NCBI GenBank assembly: GCA_937900285.1
Contig: CALCEM010000027.1
Coordinates: 861-64,860 of the forward strand
DNA: 64,000 nucleotides
Source: an uncultured Fretibacterium sp.
GTDB taxonomy: Bacteria > Synergistota > Synergistia > Synergistales > Aminobacteriaceae
Reading direction: 5' to 3'
Made by a program: the position numbers and the translations under genes. Under the pieces are notes generated by a model. The model did not search any database, was not told the origin of the DNA, and saw only the letters and a program-made list of their open reading frames with translations. Of the stretch, positions 10,461-51,090 are shown piece after piece (positions within the stretch are counted from its first letter, which is position 1; each line of letters begins with the position of its first letter).

Positions 10461-11159
10461 ATGAGTTTATTCAGTTCTATTCCGGCAGGAGGAACGGTTT
10501 TTAATTTCCTGGCAGTTTTAATCGGCAGTTTTATCGGACTTACTGTCGGGAAATTTTTTCCGGAAAAGTTGCAGCGCGAAATTTTTAACTGTTTGGGATT
10601 ATTTACGATTTACGTCGGGATCAGCATGGCTCTTAAAATGCAAAATTCAAACGCTGTATTATTGAGTTTAGTTTTGGGTACGATAACGGGTAATTTTTTG
10701 GGGATCGAAAATGAATTAAATTCCTTAGGCGACAAAATAAAAAATAAATTACATGCGAAAGAATCAAAATTTACAGAGGGTTTTGTGACGGCGACATTAT
10801 TATTTTGTGTTGGTTCAATGGCAATACTCGGAGCATTTGAGGACGGTTTAAAACATAATCCTTCAATTTTGATCACAAAAGGTGTAATGGATGGCATAGC
10901 ATCAATATTATTTTCGAGTGCGTTAGGTCTTGGCGTAATGTTTTCTGTTTTCCCGTTAATAATTTATCAGGGCGGATTAACTTTTTTAGCTTCGCTTTTA
11001 GCACCGTTCATAACGCAAAATATTTACGCTGATATATCTGGCATCGGTGGCTTGATGATAATCGGAATAGGCACGAATTTACTGGGCGTAACAAAATTAA
11101 AATTATCTGATATGTTGCCGGGATTAATTTATATAGTTTTGCTATCAAGAATTTTTTAA
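10461..11159 (+). CDS. DUF554 family membrane protein
   Basis: 232 aa polytopic protein. GGTVFNFLAVLIGSFIGL...CLGLFTIYVGISMAL matches the DUF554 (YqgA/YdfK-like) N-terminus. Confidence 0.7.
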   Translation: MSLFSSIPAGGTVFNFLAVLIGSFIGLTVGKFFPEKLQREIFNCLGLFTIYVGISMALKMQNSNAVLLSLVLGTITGNFLGIENELNSLGDKIKNKLHAKESKFTEGFVTATLLFCVGSMAILGAFEDGLKHNPSILITKGVMDGIASILFSSALGLGVMFSVFPLIIYQGGLTFLASLLAPFITQNIYADISGIGGLMIIGIGTNLLGVTKLKLSDMLPGLIYIVLLSRIF

Positions 11160-11188
11160 AATTTAAAATTGGGGGTTGACAAAATAAA

Positions 11189-12250
11189 ATGACTGCGCTT
11201 AAATCATCACATCACATCACATCACCTATTAATGTCCCTGAAGTAAATCATGATCTTGATGAAATTCATGTAACTTTGGGAGTTTACGATCCTACCGGGA
11301 AATATTCGCAACATGCCGGGGTCGTGATGACTTCGATTTTTGAAAACACTCATAACCCGGTGACCGTTCATATTTTGCACGATGAAACTTTGACGGAAGA
11401 CAACAAAAATAAGTTTATACGAACTGCCGAAAAATATAATCAAAAAATAGATTTAATAGACGTTAGAGAACGTGTAAAGAAGCTTCCTAAGCATGTAATA
11501 AATTTTTTTAGAGAACAATATTCTTCGCTTGGGACGTTTTATAGGTTTTTTATATTTGATTTACTGAAATTTGACAAAATAATATATTTGGATTGCGATA
11601 TTGTTGTGAATCTTGATATAAAAGAATTATGGCAGATCGATATAAAAAATTATTGTTTAGCTGCAATATTAGATAAACCGCTTCAAAGTACTCCAAAATT
11701 TTCGCAATACGCAATAGGTTTCAAAATGTATAACATGGACATCGCATCATATTTTAATGCTGGGGTTATAGTATTTAACTTGTCTGAAATACGTAAACTC
11801 AATTTAAACATTATTGAAGAAGCTACAAAATATTTCAAGCGCTATTCTCATATATTATCATTCAGTGATCAAGATTTTTTAAACGCGTTTTTTCACGATT
11901 CGGTTAAGCTCATTGATGAAAAGTTTAATAAATTTAATAGATTTTTGCCGGTCACAGATGAAGAAGCTCAAAATATCATTATGCACACTACTCCATACGA
12001 GTTCAGAGGCTGGGCAATGCACGGAAAAATTTATCAAAAATATTATTGGCTGAATTATTTAAAATCTGCATGGGGTGAAAATAAATCTCCGGCCGAAATG
12101 GTAGAAATATTAACTGAAGCCGCAAATATTCCGCAAAAAATCCAGTATTCAAAATTCATGAGCATTTACACAAGAAGCATAAAACATATAAAAGGCATAT
12201 TCAAATTATTAACGGCAGAATTAAAATACAGAATTACTCATAAGAATTAA
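11189..12250 (+). CDS. Glycosyltransferase family 8 (LPS/LOS-type retaining glycosyltransferase) with a 5' ATCAC repeat tract
   Basis: IHVTLGVYDPTGKYSQHAGVVMTSI, the DxD motif YLDCDIVV, and NAGVIVFNL. The tract encodes SSHHITS after codon 5. Confidence 0.85.
   Translation: MTALKSSHHITSPINVPEVNHDLDEIHVTLGVYDPTGKYSQHAGVVMTSIFENTHNPVTVHILHDETLTEDNKNKFIRTAEKYNQKIDLIDVRERVKKLPKHVINFFREQYSSLGTFYRFFIFDLLKFDKIIYLDCDIVVNLDIKELWQIDIKNYCLAAILDKPLQSTPKFSQYAIGFKMYNMDIASYFNAGVIVFNLSEIRKLNLNIIEEATKYFKRYSHILSFSDQDFLNAFFHDSVKLIDEKFNKFNRFLPVTDEEAQNIIMHTTPYEFRGWAMHGKIYQKYYWLNYLKSAWGENKSPAEMVEILTEAANIPQKIQYSKFMSIYTRSIKHIKGIFKLLTAELKYRITHKN
11203..11225 (+). repeat. Pentanucleotide tract atc(ATCAC)4 inside the 5' end of the GT8 gene
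   Basis: Read directly: aaATCATCACATCACATCACATCACct. The unit length is not a multiple of 3. Confidence 0.95.
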
Positions 12251-12319
12251 AAATTTAACAGCCTGTGATAATATTTGCAAGTAAATTATACAAATTATCA
12301 GGAGGCAAAAATTTTTTAA

Positions 12320-15133
12320 ATGGATCAAAAAGATTATAAAGATACTTTAAATTTGCCCGTCACAAATTTTCCGATGCGCGCTAATTTGGCAAAACGCGAA
12401 CCGGGATTTTTGGAATTTTGGCACGATAATGATATTTATCATAAAGCCCTCGAAGCTCGTCATAATTCAAAAGAGCATTTTATTCTGCATGATGGTCCGC
12501 CCTATGCTAACGGAGATATTCATATCGGGACGGCGTTCAATAAAATTTTAAAAGATTTCATCCCGAAATTTAAAACAATGTCCGGGATTTATGCTCCGTA
12601 TGTTCCCGGCTGGGATACTCATGGCCTGCCTATCGAATTAAGATCGCTCAAAGATGGTGGCTTCTCAAAATTAGGAGCCGGAATCGATCCCGTTGAACTT
12701 CGGAAACGCTGCAAAGAAACTGCATTACACTATTTAAATATTCAGCGCGAAGAATTTAAACGGCTCGGAGTTTTAGGCGAATGGGATCACCCATATATTA
12801 CGCTTGATCCGAATTATGAATATTTAGAATTAAATGCATTTGCCGAAATGGTCGAGAAAAATTTAATTTATCGCGGATTAAAGCCCGTATACTGGTGCAC
12901 AGATTGTCAAACAGCTTTGGCCGCCGGTGAAATTGAATATTGGGACGAATCTTCACCATCGGTTTATGTTGCTTATCCGATTCCAGAAATTAAAAATAAA
13001 TTCCCGGAGTTTTCGGACAGAGAAATTTATATTGTGATCTGGACCACAACCCCCTGGACATTGCCTTCAAGTGCCGGCGTTGCGTTGCATCCAAATTATA
13101 ATTACGGATTTTATGAGCATGACAATAAAATTTATATATTCGCCGAAGGTTTAAAAAATTCCGTGAGCGAGAACACTGGAATTAATTTCGGTGATGCCTT
13201 GAAAATTGTAAAGGGTGCAGACCTCGAAAAATTAAAAGCCGTTCACCCGTTTTACGACGATAAAGAAATTTTAATTGTGTTGGCCGATTATGTAGAACTC
13301 GAAACTGGCACGGGTTGCGTACATACTTCACCAGGACACGGCGTTGAAGATTATGAAACGGGCGTGCGTTACGGCTTAAAAGTTTACAGCTCCGTAGATC
13401 ATTCCGGACATTTTGAAAAAAATATGCAGATTGTCGGAGGTATGTCGCTCGAAGAAGGCGGAAATAAAGCGATCGAATTAATTAAATCTCGTGGCAGATT
13501 GTTGGGACTTGGGAAAATTTTGCACAGTTATCCGCACTGCTGGAGATGCAAAAAGCCCGTAATATTCCGCGCAACTGATCAATGGTTTATAAATGTTTCG
13601 GAATTTAAGGAGCAAGCATTAAATTTAATCGACAACGAAATAAAATGGATTCCAGACTGGGGACGCGACAGAATTTTTAACATGGTAAGTTCTCGTTCTG
13701 ACTGGTGCATATCTCGTCAAAGAGTTTGGGGGATTCCAGTCCCTGCAATTCGCTGCAAAGATTGCGGAGCTTTCACGCTTACACCCGACAGAATAAAATT
13801 GCTCGCTGAAAAAGTAAAAACATCTGAGGACGGTACATCAATTTGGTGGCGCGAAGATTTAAAAAATTTATTCGGCGATCTTGCTAAATGTGATCACTGC
13901 GGCTCTGAAAATGTTGAAAAAGATTCTAATATTTTAGATGTCTGGTTTGATTCTGGAGTGTCACATATTTCAGTTTTAAATGAAAAATTTGGATTGTCAT
14001 GGCCGTGCGATATGTATTTAGAGGGCAGCGACCAGCATCGCGGGTGGTTTCAATCTTCGTTATTAACTGCTACAGCGATCAAGGGACATGCACCATATAA
14101 ACAAGTTTTAACGCACGGTTTTACGCTTGATGGAGAAGGCCGTAAAATGTCCAAATCAATTGGCAATACAGTAGCTCCCGGAGATGTAATAAAGGAATTT
14201 GGCGCGGATATTTTGAGGTTATGGGTTGCATCGAGTGATTACAGAAACGATGTAAGAATTTCGAAGACAATTTTAAAAACTTTGTCCGAAACTTATAGGC
14301 GTATTCGTAACACGTCCAGATTTTTGCTGGGGAATTTACATGATTTTAAGCCGGCCGAAAATAAAATTAATTACGAGAATTTATTACAAATTGATAAATG
14401 GATTCTCGACAGGTTGCAGCATATTATAAGCAAATCTCAAACGGCTTACGAAAATTATGAATTTCATATCCCTGTTAATTTAATTCATTCGTTCTGCGTA
14501 AATGAGTTGAGTGCGTTTCATTTGGATATAAGCAAAGATCGTTTATATGTTGAAGATAAAAATTCTTTAACCAGGCGTAGCGCACAGACTGTAATGTGGG
14601 AAATTTTAACGGCCATGACGAAAATTTTAGCGCCGATTTTGAGTTTTACGGCAGAAGAGATTTGGCAGGAAATGAAAAATATTGATCCGAATTTACAGGA
14701 GAGTATATTTTTATCAGATTTCCCGAAATGCGACGAATCAAAAATTAACGATGAATTAAATAATTTATTTGACGAAGCTCAAAAATTAAAAGGTGCTGTT
14801 AGCCGTTGTCTTGAAATTATGCGAGCCGATAAAATAATAGGGACATCACTTGAAGCAGCTGTACAAGTTAAAAAATCTGACGAGCTTAAAATTTTAATTG
14901 ATTCGTTCACGCCCGAAGAATTAGCGGACATAGTGATCGTTTCAAAATTTGAATGGGTCGGCGAAAATAATAATTTAAATCTCGCGAAAAATTTCCATGA
15001 TGATTTAACGGGAATTGATCTCGCTGCAGGTTTCACGGCTGGGACGAAATGCCCGCGCTGTTGGAAATATTCAGATAAGCCCAATAAAAATAATTTATGT
15101 CCGAGATGTGCGCATGTTCTGCACGAGGATTAA
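12320..15133 (+). CDS. ileS: Isoleucine--tRNA ligase
   Basis: 937 aa. HIGH-type motif PYANGDIHIGT, KMSKS, and C-terminal Zn-binding CPRCW...CPRC. Confidence 0.97.
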   Translation: MDQKDYKDTLNLPVTNFPMRANLAKREPGFLEFWHDNDIYHKALEARHNSKEHFILHDGPPYANGDIHIGTAFNKILKDFIPKFKTMSGIYAPYVPGWDTHGLPIELRSLKDGGFSKLGAGIDPVELRKRCKETALHYLNIQREEFKRLGVLGEWDHPYITLDPNYEYLELNAFAEMVEKNLIYRGLKPVYWCTDCQTALAAGEIEYWDESSPSVYVAYPIPEIKNKFPEFSDREIYIVIWTTTPWTLPSSAGVALHPNYNYGFYEHDNKIYIFAEGLKNSVSENTGINFGDALKIVKGADLEKLKAVHPFYDDKEILIVLADYVELETGTGCVHTSPGHGVEDYETGVRYGLKVYSSVDHSGHFEKNMQIVGGMSLEEGGNKAIELIKSRGRLLGLGKILHSYPHCWRCKKPVIFRATDQWFINVSEFKEQALNLIDNEIKWIPDWGRDRIFNMVSSRSDWCISRQRVWGIPVPAIRCKDCGAFTLTPDRIKLLAEKVKTSEDGTSIWWREDLKNLFGDLAKCDHCGSENVEKDSNILDVWFDSGVSHISVLNEKFGLSWPCDMYLEGSDQHRGWFQSSLLTATAIKGHAPYKQVLTHGFTLDGEGRKMSKSIGNTVAPGDVIKEFGADILRLWVASSDYRNDVRISKTILKTLSETYRRIRNTSRFLLGNLHDFKPAENKINYENLLQIDKWILDRLQHIISKSQTAYENYEFHIPVNLIHSFCVNELSAFHLDISKDRLYVEDKNSLTRRSAQTVMWEILTAMTKILAPILSFTAEEIWQEMKNIDPNLQESIFLSDFPKCDESKINDELNNLFDEAQKLKGAVSRCLEIMRADKIIGTSLEAAVQVKKSDELKILIDSFTPEELADIVIVSKFEWVGENNNLNLAKNFHDDLTGIDLAAGFTAGTKCPRCWKYSDKPNKNNLCPRCAHVLHED

Positions 15134-41604: not shown

Positions 41605-44600
41605 TTATACTTTAAATTCTTCCGGCCTTTTGCCATAACGAATTTTTCTCGGCAAATTATCATCGTATAAAAAATATTTATTCATTTGGGCGATGTGCTT
41701 TATAAAATTAATTTTCATTTCATCGGTCATTTTATTTTCAAGAGCATTTTTTATAACGGCCTCCAAACTTTCAAAATTAAAAGCCTCGTAGCAACAGCCT
41801 TTACCCCTTAATGACGTATATCCGAGCATTATTAAAGGTTTTTCTCGAATTAATGCTATATAACCTGTTGAGCTTAAAATCGTTATAGTTAAATCCGCAT
41901 AATCAACCAGGTCATTAATATTACATGCTTTCACAATGTGAACGGATTTAGGCATCTCAGGAATTTCACAACCAAACATAAGAGGATGTATTTTATAAAT
42001 TATTTCCCAATTATTTTTTAATGCGAGTTCACCTAAAATTTTAGCTGCTTCATTACTTGATTTTATGAAAGGAGATTCAAAATTTTTCACAACATCATCA
42101 TATGGAAAAAGTCCGGCCTCGTAATCAAGTTCACCTGTATATAAAATTACGGGATGTTTAGGATTAAGATTCATTTTAAAATTATTTATCACATTATTTT
42201 CAGGTTGCTTATATCTGTTCAGCTTGCTTGATTGTAAAAATTTATAAACTTCCTGAGCATTTTTTATTTCATCCTGAGTAATTTCCAGCTTTAAAAATTC
42301 TTCGTAATTCTTTGCCGGGAAACTTTTACCCGTTTGGCCTCCAGCTGTAACAAAAAATGTGCCGGGAATTTGACCAGTTTCCATATAATTTACAGTCATG
42401 TTAAGTTCTTTTGCGACACAATTGACAATTCTGTGTAACCCTTGATATTCATTCCATGTAATAATTAACTTTGGTTTTAATATTTTAAATACTTGGGTTA
42501 AATATTCGTATGATTTAAGCACAAAATATTCTATAAAACTCCTTTTGACATTGGGTAAATACTTTATTAACATCTCAACATCACCATTTAAAAGAGGGCT
42601 AGAATAAATTAATTTTTTCTGATCATCAGTTACTTTTATATCAAGCTCAGGAATATATTTATTACGTTCAAAAAATTCCGGCAAAATATGTACCGGCATA
42701 TGAACATTTTTAATAACCTGCTCAAATGACGTATATTCAGACATAAATAACCAGTCATAATTTATATTAACTCCGGCAAGATCATTCAAAAATGCGCATA
42801 TTCCTCTACCATATCCGGCAACCCCACCGATAAAAATAATTTTGTCCCGTTTAAAGTATCTTGCATAATTTTTAATTTCATCAATAGAATTTTTTATGTC
42901 AATTTCAGTACTTTTTACAAATTCTTCGGCTGATACTTTAAATTTATTGGGATTCAATTTATTAAGCCTTCTGATTATCCCTTTTACGTGGAGTTTTTTC
43001 GCGATGTCTTTTAAATAAAATTTTTCCGCAACGCCTTTTAATAATTTTTTGATTTTGCTCCCTTCACGCTCATCAGAATAAGGCACGAAATAATTATAAA
43101 TTTTCTTAGCTCCGAGAAATTTCAGGAATTTTTTAAGCATAAATTTATTACGGTTTTTAAATTTGCCGTCAAACCACGCCTCAAAATAATTTGCTGTGCT
43201 ACCTCCCATAAATTCGGCTTCGGAATGGCTTAAGGCTCTTAAAATTTTCGCATCGGTTTTTGTCGGATTAATTAAGATTTCTGCAACAATCCAAAATAAA
43301 TTATGCGGATCAAATCTCATAAATTTAATATTTTCTCCGAAACGTTCGGCCATGATCCTGCAAAATAAAATTATATTTTCCTGAATTATATTTACGTTGT
43401 CGTGCGGAATATTTATTTTCCCGTCTTGTTTTATAAATTTTCCGTCGCGCTTAATAATTTCCGTTATGCCAGGTTCGGAACTGCTTAAAATTCTTTCCAT
43501 GAGAGCATGTAATAAACCAGCTTTACCAGTAACATTTTTTCCGCAGTTAATGCATGATTTTAAATTTACTTTTGGCAAATATTCAGAACAAAGCCAGGAC
43601 CATTTTAAAAGCTGATAGCCCGTAACTCTTAATCCGCTGGAAATTTCGGCCATAAAATTAGCTACAGCTCCGCGATAACCAATATCAAATATTGCGACAT
43701 GTTCATAATTTTTAATTTTGTCCCGGCAATATTCGCGAATAATTTTTATTTTCTCAGTTCCATTTTTGCGTAAATATTTTTCTAATTCGCTCGTCAGTCT
43801 GTAAATTCTGTGAACGTCCTGAATTTCTTCGTCCGGATTTAAATAACCGCTCTTGCCTAAAATTCTTAACACTTCTTCAAATTCTTTTTCGTCATCAATT
43901 AATAATCTGTATTTTATAAAATTTCTGACGGTCATTTTTTCGGGAATCGTATAACATAAATGCGTTAATGGGTGTTCATGTTCCGCGCAAATGGGATAAC
44001 GTACACTGCGATTTAAATAAATTGGTTCTGCTGAAATTTCAGGATCGTAAAAATTTTTAAGTAATTTTATAATTTCAAGCGGTAAATAACCATCCCGCCA
44101 GGCCAGAAATAATTTTTTTATCCCGTTATGTTCCATATCATCGAGAATCCATTTTGAAAAAGCCAACATAAACGGAGCAATTACAAAGCCTAAATTTTCA
44201 GGGGAATTATTAGCGATGCCGTCATATTTTATAAACGGGTCGTCAAATAATAAATTTGCCAAAGTTCCAATTAAAAAAACATTATCGTTTGAATTTTCCG
44301 CGATTTCCCGTAATTGATTATGCGAGTTAAAAACATCGATTGCCTTAGGAAATAAAAACGCGTTTAACCCTGCTTCACGGGCTTTTACAAAATCAGAATA
44401 ATAATTATCTCCAATATGTAAAATTTCATTGGGCTTAATATTTTCCCGTTCAAAATCCTTTATGATGCGTTTAAATAATTTGCCTGTAGATTTTGTTTCT
44501 TTGTATTCGGACGACAAATAAATTTTTTTGTAACCAGTGAAATTATTTTTATTCAGAACTTTTTCAATAAAATTAACTGGTAAATACATATCTGACGTAA

Positions 44601-45063
44601 TTATAATTATTTTGCCGGAATTTAGAGCACTTTCAAAAACTTCTTTTATGCTTTCTCTCGAATATAATAATTTTTCTTCCGTATCAAGCTCAAAATTTTT
44701 TATATCTTCTACCTGTTCGTGTGAAAATCCAAAACATTTTTCAAGCTGTAAATAAATTTCATTCAGCGTAATTTCATCATGATCATTTAACTTACAATTT
44801 CTGGCTTCCTGTTCTGCTTCAGTTCGCATTCTAGTAAATTGATGTTCAGCAAACTGACCTTGATTTAAATAAAATTTATTTCCGATTATCCTGAAAATAT
44901 CCGATGGCTTCGAGGCCGGGCGAAATAATAACGTGTCAAAAATATCAAAACTTATTACTTTAAATTTATTGGAACATACTTTATTTATTAAAGAACATAA
45001 TTTACGTGATGTGATGTGATGTGATGTGATGTGAATTATACAAATTTTCTGACATCTTGTCAA
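41605..45063 (-). CDS. Large fusion protein: N-terminal HAD-family hydrolase (COG5610-like) plus a C-terminal capsule polysaccharide synthesis (KpsC/KpsS-like, PF05159-type) domain. The 5' ATCAC tract means it may be phase-OFF as assembled.
   Basis: HAD motif I VISFDIFDTLLFRP and motif IV HIGDNYYSDFVKAREAG. C-terminal block KPKLIITWNEYQGLHRIVNCVAKELNMTVNYMETGQIPGTFFV resembles Capsule_synth. The long frame has only a TTG start 1 nt after AAGGAG. Both upstream ATGs are in another frame (see findings). Confidence 0.6.
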   Translation of the reverse strand: MTRCQKICIIHITSHHITSRKLCSLINKVCSNKFKVISFDIFDTLLFRPASKPSDIFRIIGNKFYLNQGQFAEHQFTRMRTEAEQEARNCKLNDHDEITLNEIYLQLEKCFGFSHEQVEDIKNFELDTEEKLLYSRESIKEVFESALNSGKIIIITSDMYLPVNFIEKVLNKNNFTGYKKIYLSSEYKETKSTGKLFKRIIKDFERENIKPNEILHIGDNYYSDFVKAREAGLNAFLFPKAIDVFNSHNQLREIAENSNDNVFLIGTLANLLFDDPFIKYDGIANNSPENLGFVIAPFMLAFSKWILDDMEHNGIKKLFLAWRDGYLPLEIIKLLKNFYDPEISAEPIYLNRSVRYPICAEHEHPLTHLCYTIPEKMTVRNFIKYRLLIDDEKEFEEVLRILGKSGYLNPDEEIQDVHRIYRLTSELEKYLRKNGTEKIKIIREYCRDKIKNYEHVAIFDIGYRGAVANFMAEISSGLRVTGYQLLKWSWLCSEYLPKVNLKSCINCGKNVTGKAGLLHALMERILSSSEPGITEIIKRDGKFIKQDGKINIPHDNVNIIQENIILFCRIMAERFGENIKFMRFDPHNLFWIVAEILINPTKTDAKILRALSHSEAEFMGGSTANYFEAWFDGKFKNRNKFMLKKFLKFLGAKKIYNYFVPYSDEREGSKIKKLLKGVAEKFYLKDIAKKLHVKGIIRRLNKLNPNKFKVSAEEFVKSTEIDIKNSIDEIKNYARYFKRDKIIFIGGVAGYGRGICAFLNDLAGVNINYDWLFMSEYTSFEQVIKNVHMPVHILPEFFERNKYIPELDIKVTDDQKKLIYSSPLLNGDVEMLIKYLPNVKRSFIEYFVLKSYEYLTQVFKILKPKLIITWNEYQGLHRIVNCVAKELNMTVNYMETGQIPGTFFVTAGGQTGKSFPAKNYEEFLKLEITQDEIKNAQEVYKFLQSSKLNRYKQPENNVINNFKMNLNPKHPVILYTGELDYEAGLFPYDDVVKNFESPFIKSSNEAAKILGELALKNNWEIIYKIHPLMFGCEIPEMPKSVHIVKACNINDLVDYADLTITILSSTGYIALIREKPLIMLGYTSLRGKGCCYEAFNFESLEAVIKNALENKMTDEMKINFIKHIAQMNKYFLYDDNLPRKIRYGKRPEEFKV
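45006..45034 (-). repeat. Pentanucleotide tract tcac(ATCAC)5 at the 5' end of the HAD/capsule gene
   Basis: Plus strand reads (gtgat)5gtga. It encodes HITSHHITS in the long frame. Confidence 0.95.
45035..45063 (-). promoter_or_regulatory. Perfect sigma70 consensus (TTGACA-17-TATAAT) abutting the ATCAC tract; function unresolved
   Basis: Minus strand has TTGACA at 45063-45058, a 17-nt spacer, and TATAAT at 45040-45035. The predicted +1 falls inside the repeat tract. Confidence 0.4.
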
Positions 45064-45144
45064 GCTCCTTCATTTTTTTTTATAACTTATTTTAACCGGG
45101 AAGCACGTGCTGGCCTCCCGTAAATTTTATTTTAATTTAAATTT

Positions 45145-51074: not shown

Positions 51075-51090
51075 TTTTTTTTTTTTTTTT
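51075..51090. repeat. Homopolymer T16 (A16 on the minus strand) in the leader/promoter region of the islet operon
   Basis: Read directly. On the minus strand A16 is followed by taccatacgc and then TACAAT (51064-51059). Confidence 0.9.

Follow-up and report, generated by a model that had tools for sequence, protein, structure and literature searches.

What is a perfect pentanucleotide repeat doing within the first codons of a glycosyltransferase gene, and does its length decide whether the enzyme is made? The question is raised by a gene of glycosyltransferase family 8 (GT8) from an uncultured Fretibacterium sp. (GCA_937900285.1), which we have analysed within a stretch of 64,000 nt of contig CALCEM010000027.1 (positions 861 to 64,860 of the forward strand), hereafter the window. 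The first codons of this gene are followed by four copies of ATCAC, and we consider it likely, from the sequence and its relatives, that this (ATCAC)4 tract serves as the variable part of a translational frameshift switch for phase variation, acting on an accessory GT8 gene and belonging to a family of such switches that extends over the whole genome and the genus.

The layout of the locus (Table 1) is that of a coding repeat placed behind the only start codon of its gene. Indeed, the ATG at 11189-11191 is the sole start codon between the TTGACA hexamer and the tract, and the protein that it opens begins MTALKSSHHITSPINVPEVNHDLDEIHVTLGVYD, five leader codons (MTALK) preceding (ATCAC)4 and CTATTAATGTCC following it. 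An earlier note on this DNA had placed the tract directly after codon 5 and in frame, had held that no in-frame ATG, GTG or TTG occurs between the tract and the conserved segment IHVTLGVYD, and had predicted that the gain or loss of one unit would truncate the enzyme. Reading of the sequence and of its open reading frame (ORF) confirms the position and the frame, the earliest alternative start is the TTG of L30 within IHVTL, and a simulation of tract lengths bears out the truncation, the gene being ON at n = 1, 4 and 7 and giving peptides of 12-25 amino acids (aa) at any other n. The GT8 body lacks an independent start, and the enzyme is therefore predicted only when the tract counts 1, 4, 7 and so forth units. 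The 4.6 units given in the same note have to be corrected to 4.2, which is the extent of the strictly periodic run 11205-11225, the preceding 'atc' being out of register. The sequence ATCACATCACATCAC occurs five times in the window, each time inside one of its two ATCAC tracts (the second belongs to a capsule-type gene considered below), and 0 times in 100 shuffles.

A perfect repeat whose unit is not divisible by three, situated downstream of the only start codon, is the arrangement of a translational switch based on a simple sequence repeat (SSR), and the GT8 locus fits it. It departs from the leader-peptide SSR switches of the pil1 type, as no in-frame start separates the tract from the GT8 core, as well as from the promoter-spacer or upstream SSR switches of the hif, nadA and hmw type, the tract lying 3' of both promoter-like hexamers and inside the ORF. 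Regarding the product, its PF01501 domain scores 129.5 bits against a curated cut-off of 24.3, and the DxD motif YLDCDIVV is readable in the translation. The top match in the PDB is LgtC (1g9r, E 6e-13 over residues 110-248), which denotes relatedness at the level of the family only, and the NCBIfam model of the lipopolysaccharide (LPS) 3-alpha-galactosyltransferase gives a match that stays below its threshold.

Table 1. Coordinates of the GT8 locus, of the capsule-type locus and of leader-ORF loci (positions in the window unless a contig handle, C followed by a number, is given; SD, Shine-Dalgarno sequence)
Feature	Position	Strand	Basis or remark
SD-like purine element GGGGG	11171..11175	+	Sequence reading; GGGGG, AAGGAG or AGGCGG stands directly 5' of a TTGACA-like hexamer in all 43 cassette loci, for which a purine element at this place was a search criterion
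TTGACA hexamer, -35-like, between SD and start codon	11176..11181	+	Sequence reading
ATG start codon of GT8 gene, within the 17-nt spacer separating the hexamers	11189..11191	+	In frame with the 353-aa ORF
TTAAAT, weak -10-like hexamer, 17 nt past TTGACA, abutting the tract	11199..11204	+	Lacks the A at position 2; promoter scan makes no call
(ATCAC)4 pentanucleotide tract, encodes HHITS	11206-11225; periodic run 11205..11225 = 4.2 units	+	Tandem Repeats Finder, perfect period 5
GT8 glycosyltransferase ORF, 353 aa, in frame (ON)	11189..12250	+	Pfam PF01501, E 2e-37
AAGGAG SD of capsule-type cassette	45065..45070	-	Sequence reading
Perfect TTGACA-17-TATAAT enclosing ATG 45055-45053, abutting the tract	45035..45063	-	12/12 in promoter scan
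(ATCAC)5 tract at 5' end of HAD plus Capsule_synth gene, OFF from ATG	45006..45034 (periodic run 5.8 units; five units 45006-45030)	-	Repeat search
Capsule-type gene body, about 1130 aa, intact though out of frame with its ATG	41605..45055	-	PF05159, PF00702
Leader-ORF loci, examples	C7:4582, C19:3290, C20:15121, C20:20923, C29:11447, C66:25005, C76:3504		Outside the window

The strongest reason to read this tract as a switch is the company in which it stands. A census of tracts with GC-containing units (at least four copies for 5-nt and at least three for 7-nt units) has found 60 of them in the metagenome-assembled genome (MAG) to which the window belongs and 0 in shuffled genomes. As many as 43 of the 60 lie 25-44 nt downstream of a purine-rich element immediately followed by a TTGACA-like hexamer, and most of the others are cut at contig ends. 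In this cassette, SD-like purines are followed by a TTGACA-like hexamer and a start codon, in many cases by a -10-like hexamer at a distance of 16-18 nt, and then by the tract; TTGACA is found between SD and start codon in 0.6% of 1036 control genes. With membership defined by a purine-rich SD that immediately precedes TTGACA, by a start codon in the spacer and an SSR 25-32 nt from the start of the hexamer, the GT8 locus is a member, its tract beginning 29 nt after the start of the hexamer. In place of the TAnAAT sequence that 18 other cassette loci possess 16-18 nt past TTGACA (TATAAT, TACAAT or TAAAAT in the sister cassettes), it has TTAAAT, a form common to the whole class of leaders associated with TCATC repeats. 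The search for further copies of the leader that the earlier note had recommended has been productive, since all 14 genomic occurrences of the core TTGACA[AG]A[AG]TAAAATG are followed by a tract. The common and portable phase-variation cassette that had been suspected from two genes is hence far larger than this pair, with 43 loci and about 38 gene families in this genome.

The 47 genes downstream of cassettes fall into about 38 unrelated clusters. According to Pfam, they comprise glycosyltransferases (GT1/GT4, GT2, GT8, GT10, GT11), GtrII, three Acyl_transf_3 and two MBOAT acyltransferases, two polysaccharide pyruvyl transferases, two FkbM methyltransferases, two radical SAM proteins and DUF4422, together with a cytidylyltransferase, a TupA ATP-grasp protein, a leucine-rich repeat (LRR) protein and an immunoglobulin (Ig)-domain protein. 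Judged by these domains, the cargo consists almost entirely of predicted surface-glycan-modifying enzymes, as is typical of phase-variable gene sets. The cassette is moreover not confined to this genome: the stringent pattern GGNGN-TTGACA-N16-18-TAnAAT is present in 26 of the 36 genomes from the genus, with up to 11 copies per genome, and the reversed pattern used as control occurs in none of them and in a single out-of-genus match overall (0 in 60 of 61 genomes). The few out-of-genus matches of the pattern that could be read stand before tRNA genes or are devoid of a repeat. The same stringent scan gave no match in Fretibacterium fastidiosum SGP1, the cultured type species, which is therefore not an obvious model for the cassette, and an Rfam search of both window cassettes found nothing.

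Two further features accompany the cassettes. A third cassette class, TTTAC(A/G)-N-GGAG/GGCAGG-cgTTA(A/G)AATT-(GTCCA/GTCAA/GTCAG)n, is found at C6:3247, C12:30535 and C48:3676; in this class the SD is flanked by the hexamer-like elements, the first unit directly follows a TTG start, and the genes are a GT4, one without Pfam match and a pyruvyl transferase. Moreover, a motif AATTAT(G/T)(T/C)CC(T)TT follows the tracts of unrelated genes, here and in relatives (window 11226-11240, CTATTAATGTCCCTG; 45005-44990 on the minus strand, GTAAATTATGTTCTTT), and is the reverse complement of GGACATAAT, which is found before class-B tracts. Masking of the SD by this motif (AATTATGTCC / TCCTTT) has been considered and rejected as a general feature, the duplex energies being -4.7 kcal/mol vs -4.8 kcal/mol for controls (P = 0.47).

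If the tracts act through the reading frame, the repeats themselves should bear the mark of translation. Since units of 5 and 7 nt are read successively in all three frames, translation requires that a unit be free of stop codons in each rotation. This is precisely what is found: none of the 23 distinct sense-strand units contains a stop codon in any rotation, vs 12 of the 23 reverse complements (Fisher 7e-5), the probability of such an outcome being 0.006 for letter-shuffled and 5e-5 for random units. Moreover, the 22 tract-gene fusions of the genome are evenly divided between 11 in frame and 11 out of frame with the cassette start, and all 11 out-of-frame genes retain ORFs of 242-1132 aa, so that their OFF states look reversible.

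A second kind of output is seen at 15 leader loci, in which a short leader ORF contains the tract and the main gene possesses a separate start 40-172 nt further on. At eight of them, exactly one of the three frames can be read through from the tract until it terminates in an ATGA/GTGA overlap with the start codon of the main gene (background rate of stop/start overlap 0.18; P = 0.002 for 8/15), and at three more it terminates no farther than 7 nt from that codon; the two remaining frames close 1-31 nt past the tract. This one-frame ATGA geometry recurs in other species. It looks like the signature of a frame-dependent translational coupling rather than of enzyme truncation: the frame would decide whether translation reaches the main start, and the locus would thereby be switched. 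Taken together, the stop-free sense units and the one-frame ATGA coupling show that translation proceeds through the tracts from the upstream start.

Do such tracts change in length? The comparison across strains that the earlier note had proposed has yielded variation at homologous GT8 loci carrying the cassette and none for the tract of the window. GT8 homologues of 39-50% identity are present in about 17 other species of the genus, and those of 15 species display the same architecture with 3.3 to 13.6 units, mostly of CGCCCAA, also of GGAATCA, ATCGCAC and CGACCAA. Including the window gene, eight of the 16 cassette GT8 genes are ON and eight are OFF, every OFF allele possessing an intact frame of 190-346 aa. 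Within single clusters at 90% identity, one ON allele exceeds another by exactly 7 or 14 residues of NAQRPTP, that is by 3 or 6 units, and on many further contigs of these clusters the gene is called from an internal Met, as expected of OFF alleles. In one case, an identical GT8 body of 301 aa with identical leaders and flanks has been recovered from different samples with 5.6 units (four contigs), 8.6 units (two contigs) and 9.6 units (one contig). Clusters P0149 and P0150 had also been taken for length variants and were discarded, as they represent a high-GC lineage without cassettes in which the differences are contig truncations and alternative start calls. In the MAG itself, 14 of the 164 contig ends stop in a tract, these end tracts averaging 48 bp vs 36 bp for internal ones, which fits a within-population length heterogeneity of the longer tracts.

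Whether the tract of the window is itself still mobile is a more delicate matter, and several points weigh against it. With 21 bp it is the second shortest of the 46 internal tracts in the genome; it was assembled without a break, unlike 14 tracts that are longer on average and lie at contig ends; the one Logan contig that covers it, from a strain about 95% identical, has the same length; the absence of any observed length variant concerns a gene known from one sample only (ERR1278105); and the spacing of 13 nt between SD and ATG is long. The shortness, the unbroken assembly and the contig of equal length are also what a locked-ON relic would lead one to see, namely a former switch that has contracted to four units and become stable, HHITS being a harmless N-terminal extension and GT8 constitutive. 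Such relics have counterparts in the genus, as the loci L175-L184 of another Fretibacterium-like species have a tract collapsed to <2 units (GAC(C/T)AACGACC) next to an intact TTGACA-17-TATAAT, in an allele identical in 10 samples apart from one C/T base, which appears to be a naturally locked-ON allele that has retained its hexamers. In the same vein, the third ATCAC tract of the genome is point-mutated: located at C82:10883-10904 (minus strand), it reads (ATCAC)4-ATTAC-(ATCAC)2 behind a class B leader with a TTG start, in front of an Acyl_transf_3 O-acyltransferase gene, and the single C-to-T change that interrupts it may stabilise it. Against a relic, however, the four units of the window are perfect, no substitution interrupting them; among GT8 homologues, tracts of 4.1-4.6 units are part of series that vary (P0034 and P0192 are 3 units apart); and a four-unit pentanucleotide coding tract, the (GACGA)4 of Haemophilus influenzae hsdM, phase-varies at a high rate (PMC2651432). 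We hence regard a relic as unlikely. The GT8 tract is probably a genuine member of the switch family, currently ON and at the slow end of the switching range, and probably slow because it has only four units.

The data sets searched for further alleles have so far offered little of this gene. A scan of metagenome contigs for the exact flanks of the GT8 locus gave 0 matches, a protein-guided scan of such contigs retrieved one relative of 40% identity only, and a search of 5.8 billion proteins returned, besides the GT8 gene itself, nothing above 54% identity. Parts of the region are present in three runs only, in the form of Logan contigs of low depth that are broken at tracts, and a search for RNA runs found none.

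A different explanation starts from the promoter-like hexamers that enclose the start codon. Sites of the form TTGACA-N16-18-TAnAAT number 46 genome-wide vs about 13 in shuffles; 18 of them are repeat cassettes, and several others precede tRNA genes and look like ordinary strong promoters. Across the genus, the sequence of the spacer and the codon phase of the -10-like hexamer vary and the hexamers stay, which points to conservation at the level of the DNA. From this constant pair, kept at a spacing of 16-18 nt whatever the spacer and the frame, and from the perfect 12/12 promoter of the capsule cassette, it could be argued that TTGACA-17-TTAAAT is a promoter from which transcription starts inside the tract, so that tract length tunes the 5' end of the mRNA and not the frame. 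We consider this very improbable at the GT8 locus, where a transcript starting in the tract would miss the sole SD and start codon of the gene and where the -10-like hexamer is of the weak form that the promoter scan leaves uncalled. Moreover, the stop-free sense units and the one-frame ATGA coupling point to translation from the upstream start, and relatives have, 20-27 nt upstream of the SD, an additional promoter of the extended -10 type (TGnTATAAT).

Within the translational switch that we favour, the embedded hexamers could still have a role of their own: they may cause tandem-promoter interference, couple the first ribosome by a sigma-dependent pause or open the repeat DNA in cis. Their presence would find an explanation, for the time being a rather doubtful one, if the cassette were a dedicated portable module for hypermutation and expression, in which a near-consensus sigma-70 promoter wraps the start codon and acts in cis. 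It might then place a transcription bubble in the first repeat units, opening the repeat DNA and raising the slippage of short tracts, an idea that has an analogue in the cis-acting small RNA promoter reportedly needed at the G-quadruplex (G4) site of pilE in Neisseria. Alternatively, a sigma-dependent pause or roadblock might couple RNA polymerase to the first ribosome and thereby silence the OFF frames tightly. If true, such a module would represent, together with the frame-dependent ATGA coupling, a new modular way to build contingency loci.

The second ATCAC tract of the window helps to define what is shared between cassettes. It belongs to the capsule-type gene, whose leader has the order AAGGAG-C-TTGACA-AG-ATG followed by (ATCAC)5 and which is simulated to be ON from its ATG at n = 3, 6 or 9; an in-frame TTG situated 1 nt past the SD is too near to it for a credible start. 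The earlier note had proposed that both genes share a common 5' module, and this holds for the core of the cassette; the two leaders are not each other's nearest relatives. Indeed, the GT8 leader is 83-87% identical to leaders of the TCATC class, and the capsule leader is 88% identical to that of a GT8 paralogue on contig C3, which has 51% protein identity to the window GT8 and carries (GCCCAAA)4.4. The ATCAC unit of the GT8 gene is one base off the ATCTC unit of its leader class. As the closest leader matches pair different units and genes, leaders, repeat units and genes are shuffled relative to one another. The bare coincidence of two unrelated genes sharing a short repeat and an AT-rich leader, for which one could invoke a GT8-capsule leader identity not above controls in a crude global alignment, is already refuted by the cassette common to 43 loci, by the genus scan with its reversed-pattern control and by the shuffles, which contain no such repeats. 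As a separate observation, pure (ATCAC)n 31-mers reach a summed depth of about 80-140 in two other metagenomes in which the flanks of window 45006-45035 are at 3-4; this excess suggests that long ATCAC tracts are common at other loci or in other organisms of these communities.

Regarding the genomic setting, the MAG consists of 82 contigs, with 1.78 Mb and 36% GC, the window lying in contig C27. Its IleS is 83% identical to that of rumen MAGs labelled 'uncultured Synergistales' and 69% identical to that of F. fastidiosum, and the relatives within the genus derive largely from ruminant-gut MAGs. In look-ups, the GT8 gene and both of its neighbours have been traced to a single sample only, the bioreactor metagenome mentioned above. 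The GT8 gene stands alone between the gene of a DUF554 membrane protein, from which it is separated by a gap of 29 nt, and ileS (window 10461-12320). Among 54 relatives, a distant GT8 gene (33% identity) lies immediately upstream of ileS in one, and DUF554 lies there directly in one. Since GT8 is missing from this position in nearly all relatives, the gene looks like an accessory single-gene insertion that has brought its own cassette. Inside the gene, a terminator-like hairpin with a T-run at 11317-11335, about 90 nt past the tract, had been a candidate attenuator and was dropped: its energy of -7 to -8 kcal/mol makes it weak, homologues do not preserve its T-run, and it probably results from the conserved HAGVVMTS codons.

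Other repeats of this genome deserve to be recorded. There are 21 poly-G/C runs of at least 10 bases, several of them at contig ends, which are probably a second class of contingency tracts in a genome of this base composition, and the window contains a 16-nt T run (51075-51090). Tracts of (GGGGATT)n without cassette occur in very AT-rich flanks at contig ends (C21:1-46, C77:28626-28657, C79:24675-24720 and the start of C79), and at the end of C79 two such arrays stand head to head, GGGGATTGGG meeting CCCAATCC. A contamination by ciliate telomeres was considered for these ends and abandoned, the GC content of the contigs concerned being normal (0.34-0.39).

How would the switch operate? The cassette provides an SD-like element, a start codon 13 nt on and five leader codons, after which the tract, being in frame, is read as HHITS. 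Slipped-strand mispairing during replication would add or remove units of 5 nt, and the descendants of a cell would alternate between GT8-ON and GT8-OFF, whatever the state of about 45-60 other switches. A population would in this way hold many combinations of surface-glycan decorations, and the selection probably comes from phages and from other enemies that recognise the cell surface, in the digester or rumen community.

Textbooks describe simple-sequence contingency loci for a few host-adapted pathogens. The about 60 tracts and 21 poly-G/C runs in a genome of 1.78 Mb would rival or exceed the classic phase-variable gene sets, and one reusable cassette on about 38 unrelated families, in many species of one genus, has the appearance of a standard part, compact and transplantable. 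These results suggest that anaerobic gut and digester communities rely to a large extent on stochastic switching of surface glycans, plausibly as a defence against phages. They also have a practical consequence for annotation: as gene callers began one GT8 at an internal Met on 18 contigs, caution is warranted with 'frameshifted' or N-terminally truncated glycosyltransferase calls in MAGs of Synergistaceae, many of which would be OFF-phase alleles and not pseudogenes. Our literature search has retrieved no paper joining Fretibacterium with phase variation, and the papers found on SSR phase variation include none on Synergistetes. Unreported in the literature searched are any phase variation in Synergistota, one portable cassette for dozens of unrelated genes across a genus, the dual output by fusion or by leader-ORF ATGA coupling, and a conserved promoter-like pair around the start codon.

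Finally, how does this locus compare with switches already known? Among phase-variable glycosyltransferases of the lipooligosaccharide (LOS) or LPS type with a 5' coding repeat, lgtC of Neisseria and Haemophilus is related to the window gene, both being of family GT8 and LgtC being its closest solved structure; lgtC differs by its poly-G or GACA repeats, where the window gene has ATCAC, and by having no shared cassette. The gene lic2A, which the earlier note had also assigned to GT8, is in family GT25. Similar in design is neuO of the E. coli K1 prophage CUS-3, which encodes a capsule O-acetyltransferase modifying a surface glycan, is in frame at every third length and has its repeats translated as an N-terminal extension. 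Like the GT8 gene, neuO carries a 5' coding repeat, in its case a heptanucleotide, with a unit that is not a multiple of three (PMC13001214); it is however a single prophage gene, whereas here one cassette serves >40 genes, with units of 5 and 7 nt and a hexamer pair around the start. The (GACGA)4 tract of hsdM belongs to a restriction-modification gene, in a species with few such loci and with a dominance of tetranucleotide tracts. For the 15 leader-ORF loci, the nearest published analogue is pil1 of Streptococcus gallolyticus, where GCAGA repeats lie in a leader peptide and frame or length decides on downstream expression (PMC3894217); pil1 acts via a transcription terminator, whereas the stop/start ATGA overlap of the leader loci points to translational coupling, and the window GT8 is of the fused type instead. 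By analogy, the mechanism at GT8 would be the classical frameshift switch by a 5' coding repeat, as in neuO, opa, lgtC and hsdM. On the scale of the genome, the likeness is to the phasomes of Campylobacter jejuni, Helicobacter pylori and Neisseria, in which dozens of independent SSR switches lie in capsule, LOS and glycosylation genes (PMC8437040, PMC5380846). Those phasomes belong to host-adapted pathogens and are built mostly on homopolymeric G/C tracts with no common leader, whereas the switches described here would share one, in an uncultured member of the Synergistota from a bioreactor.

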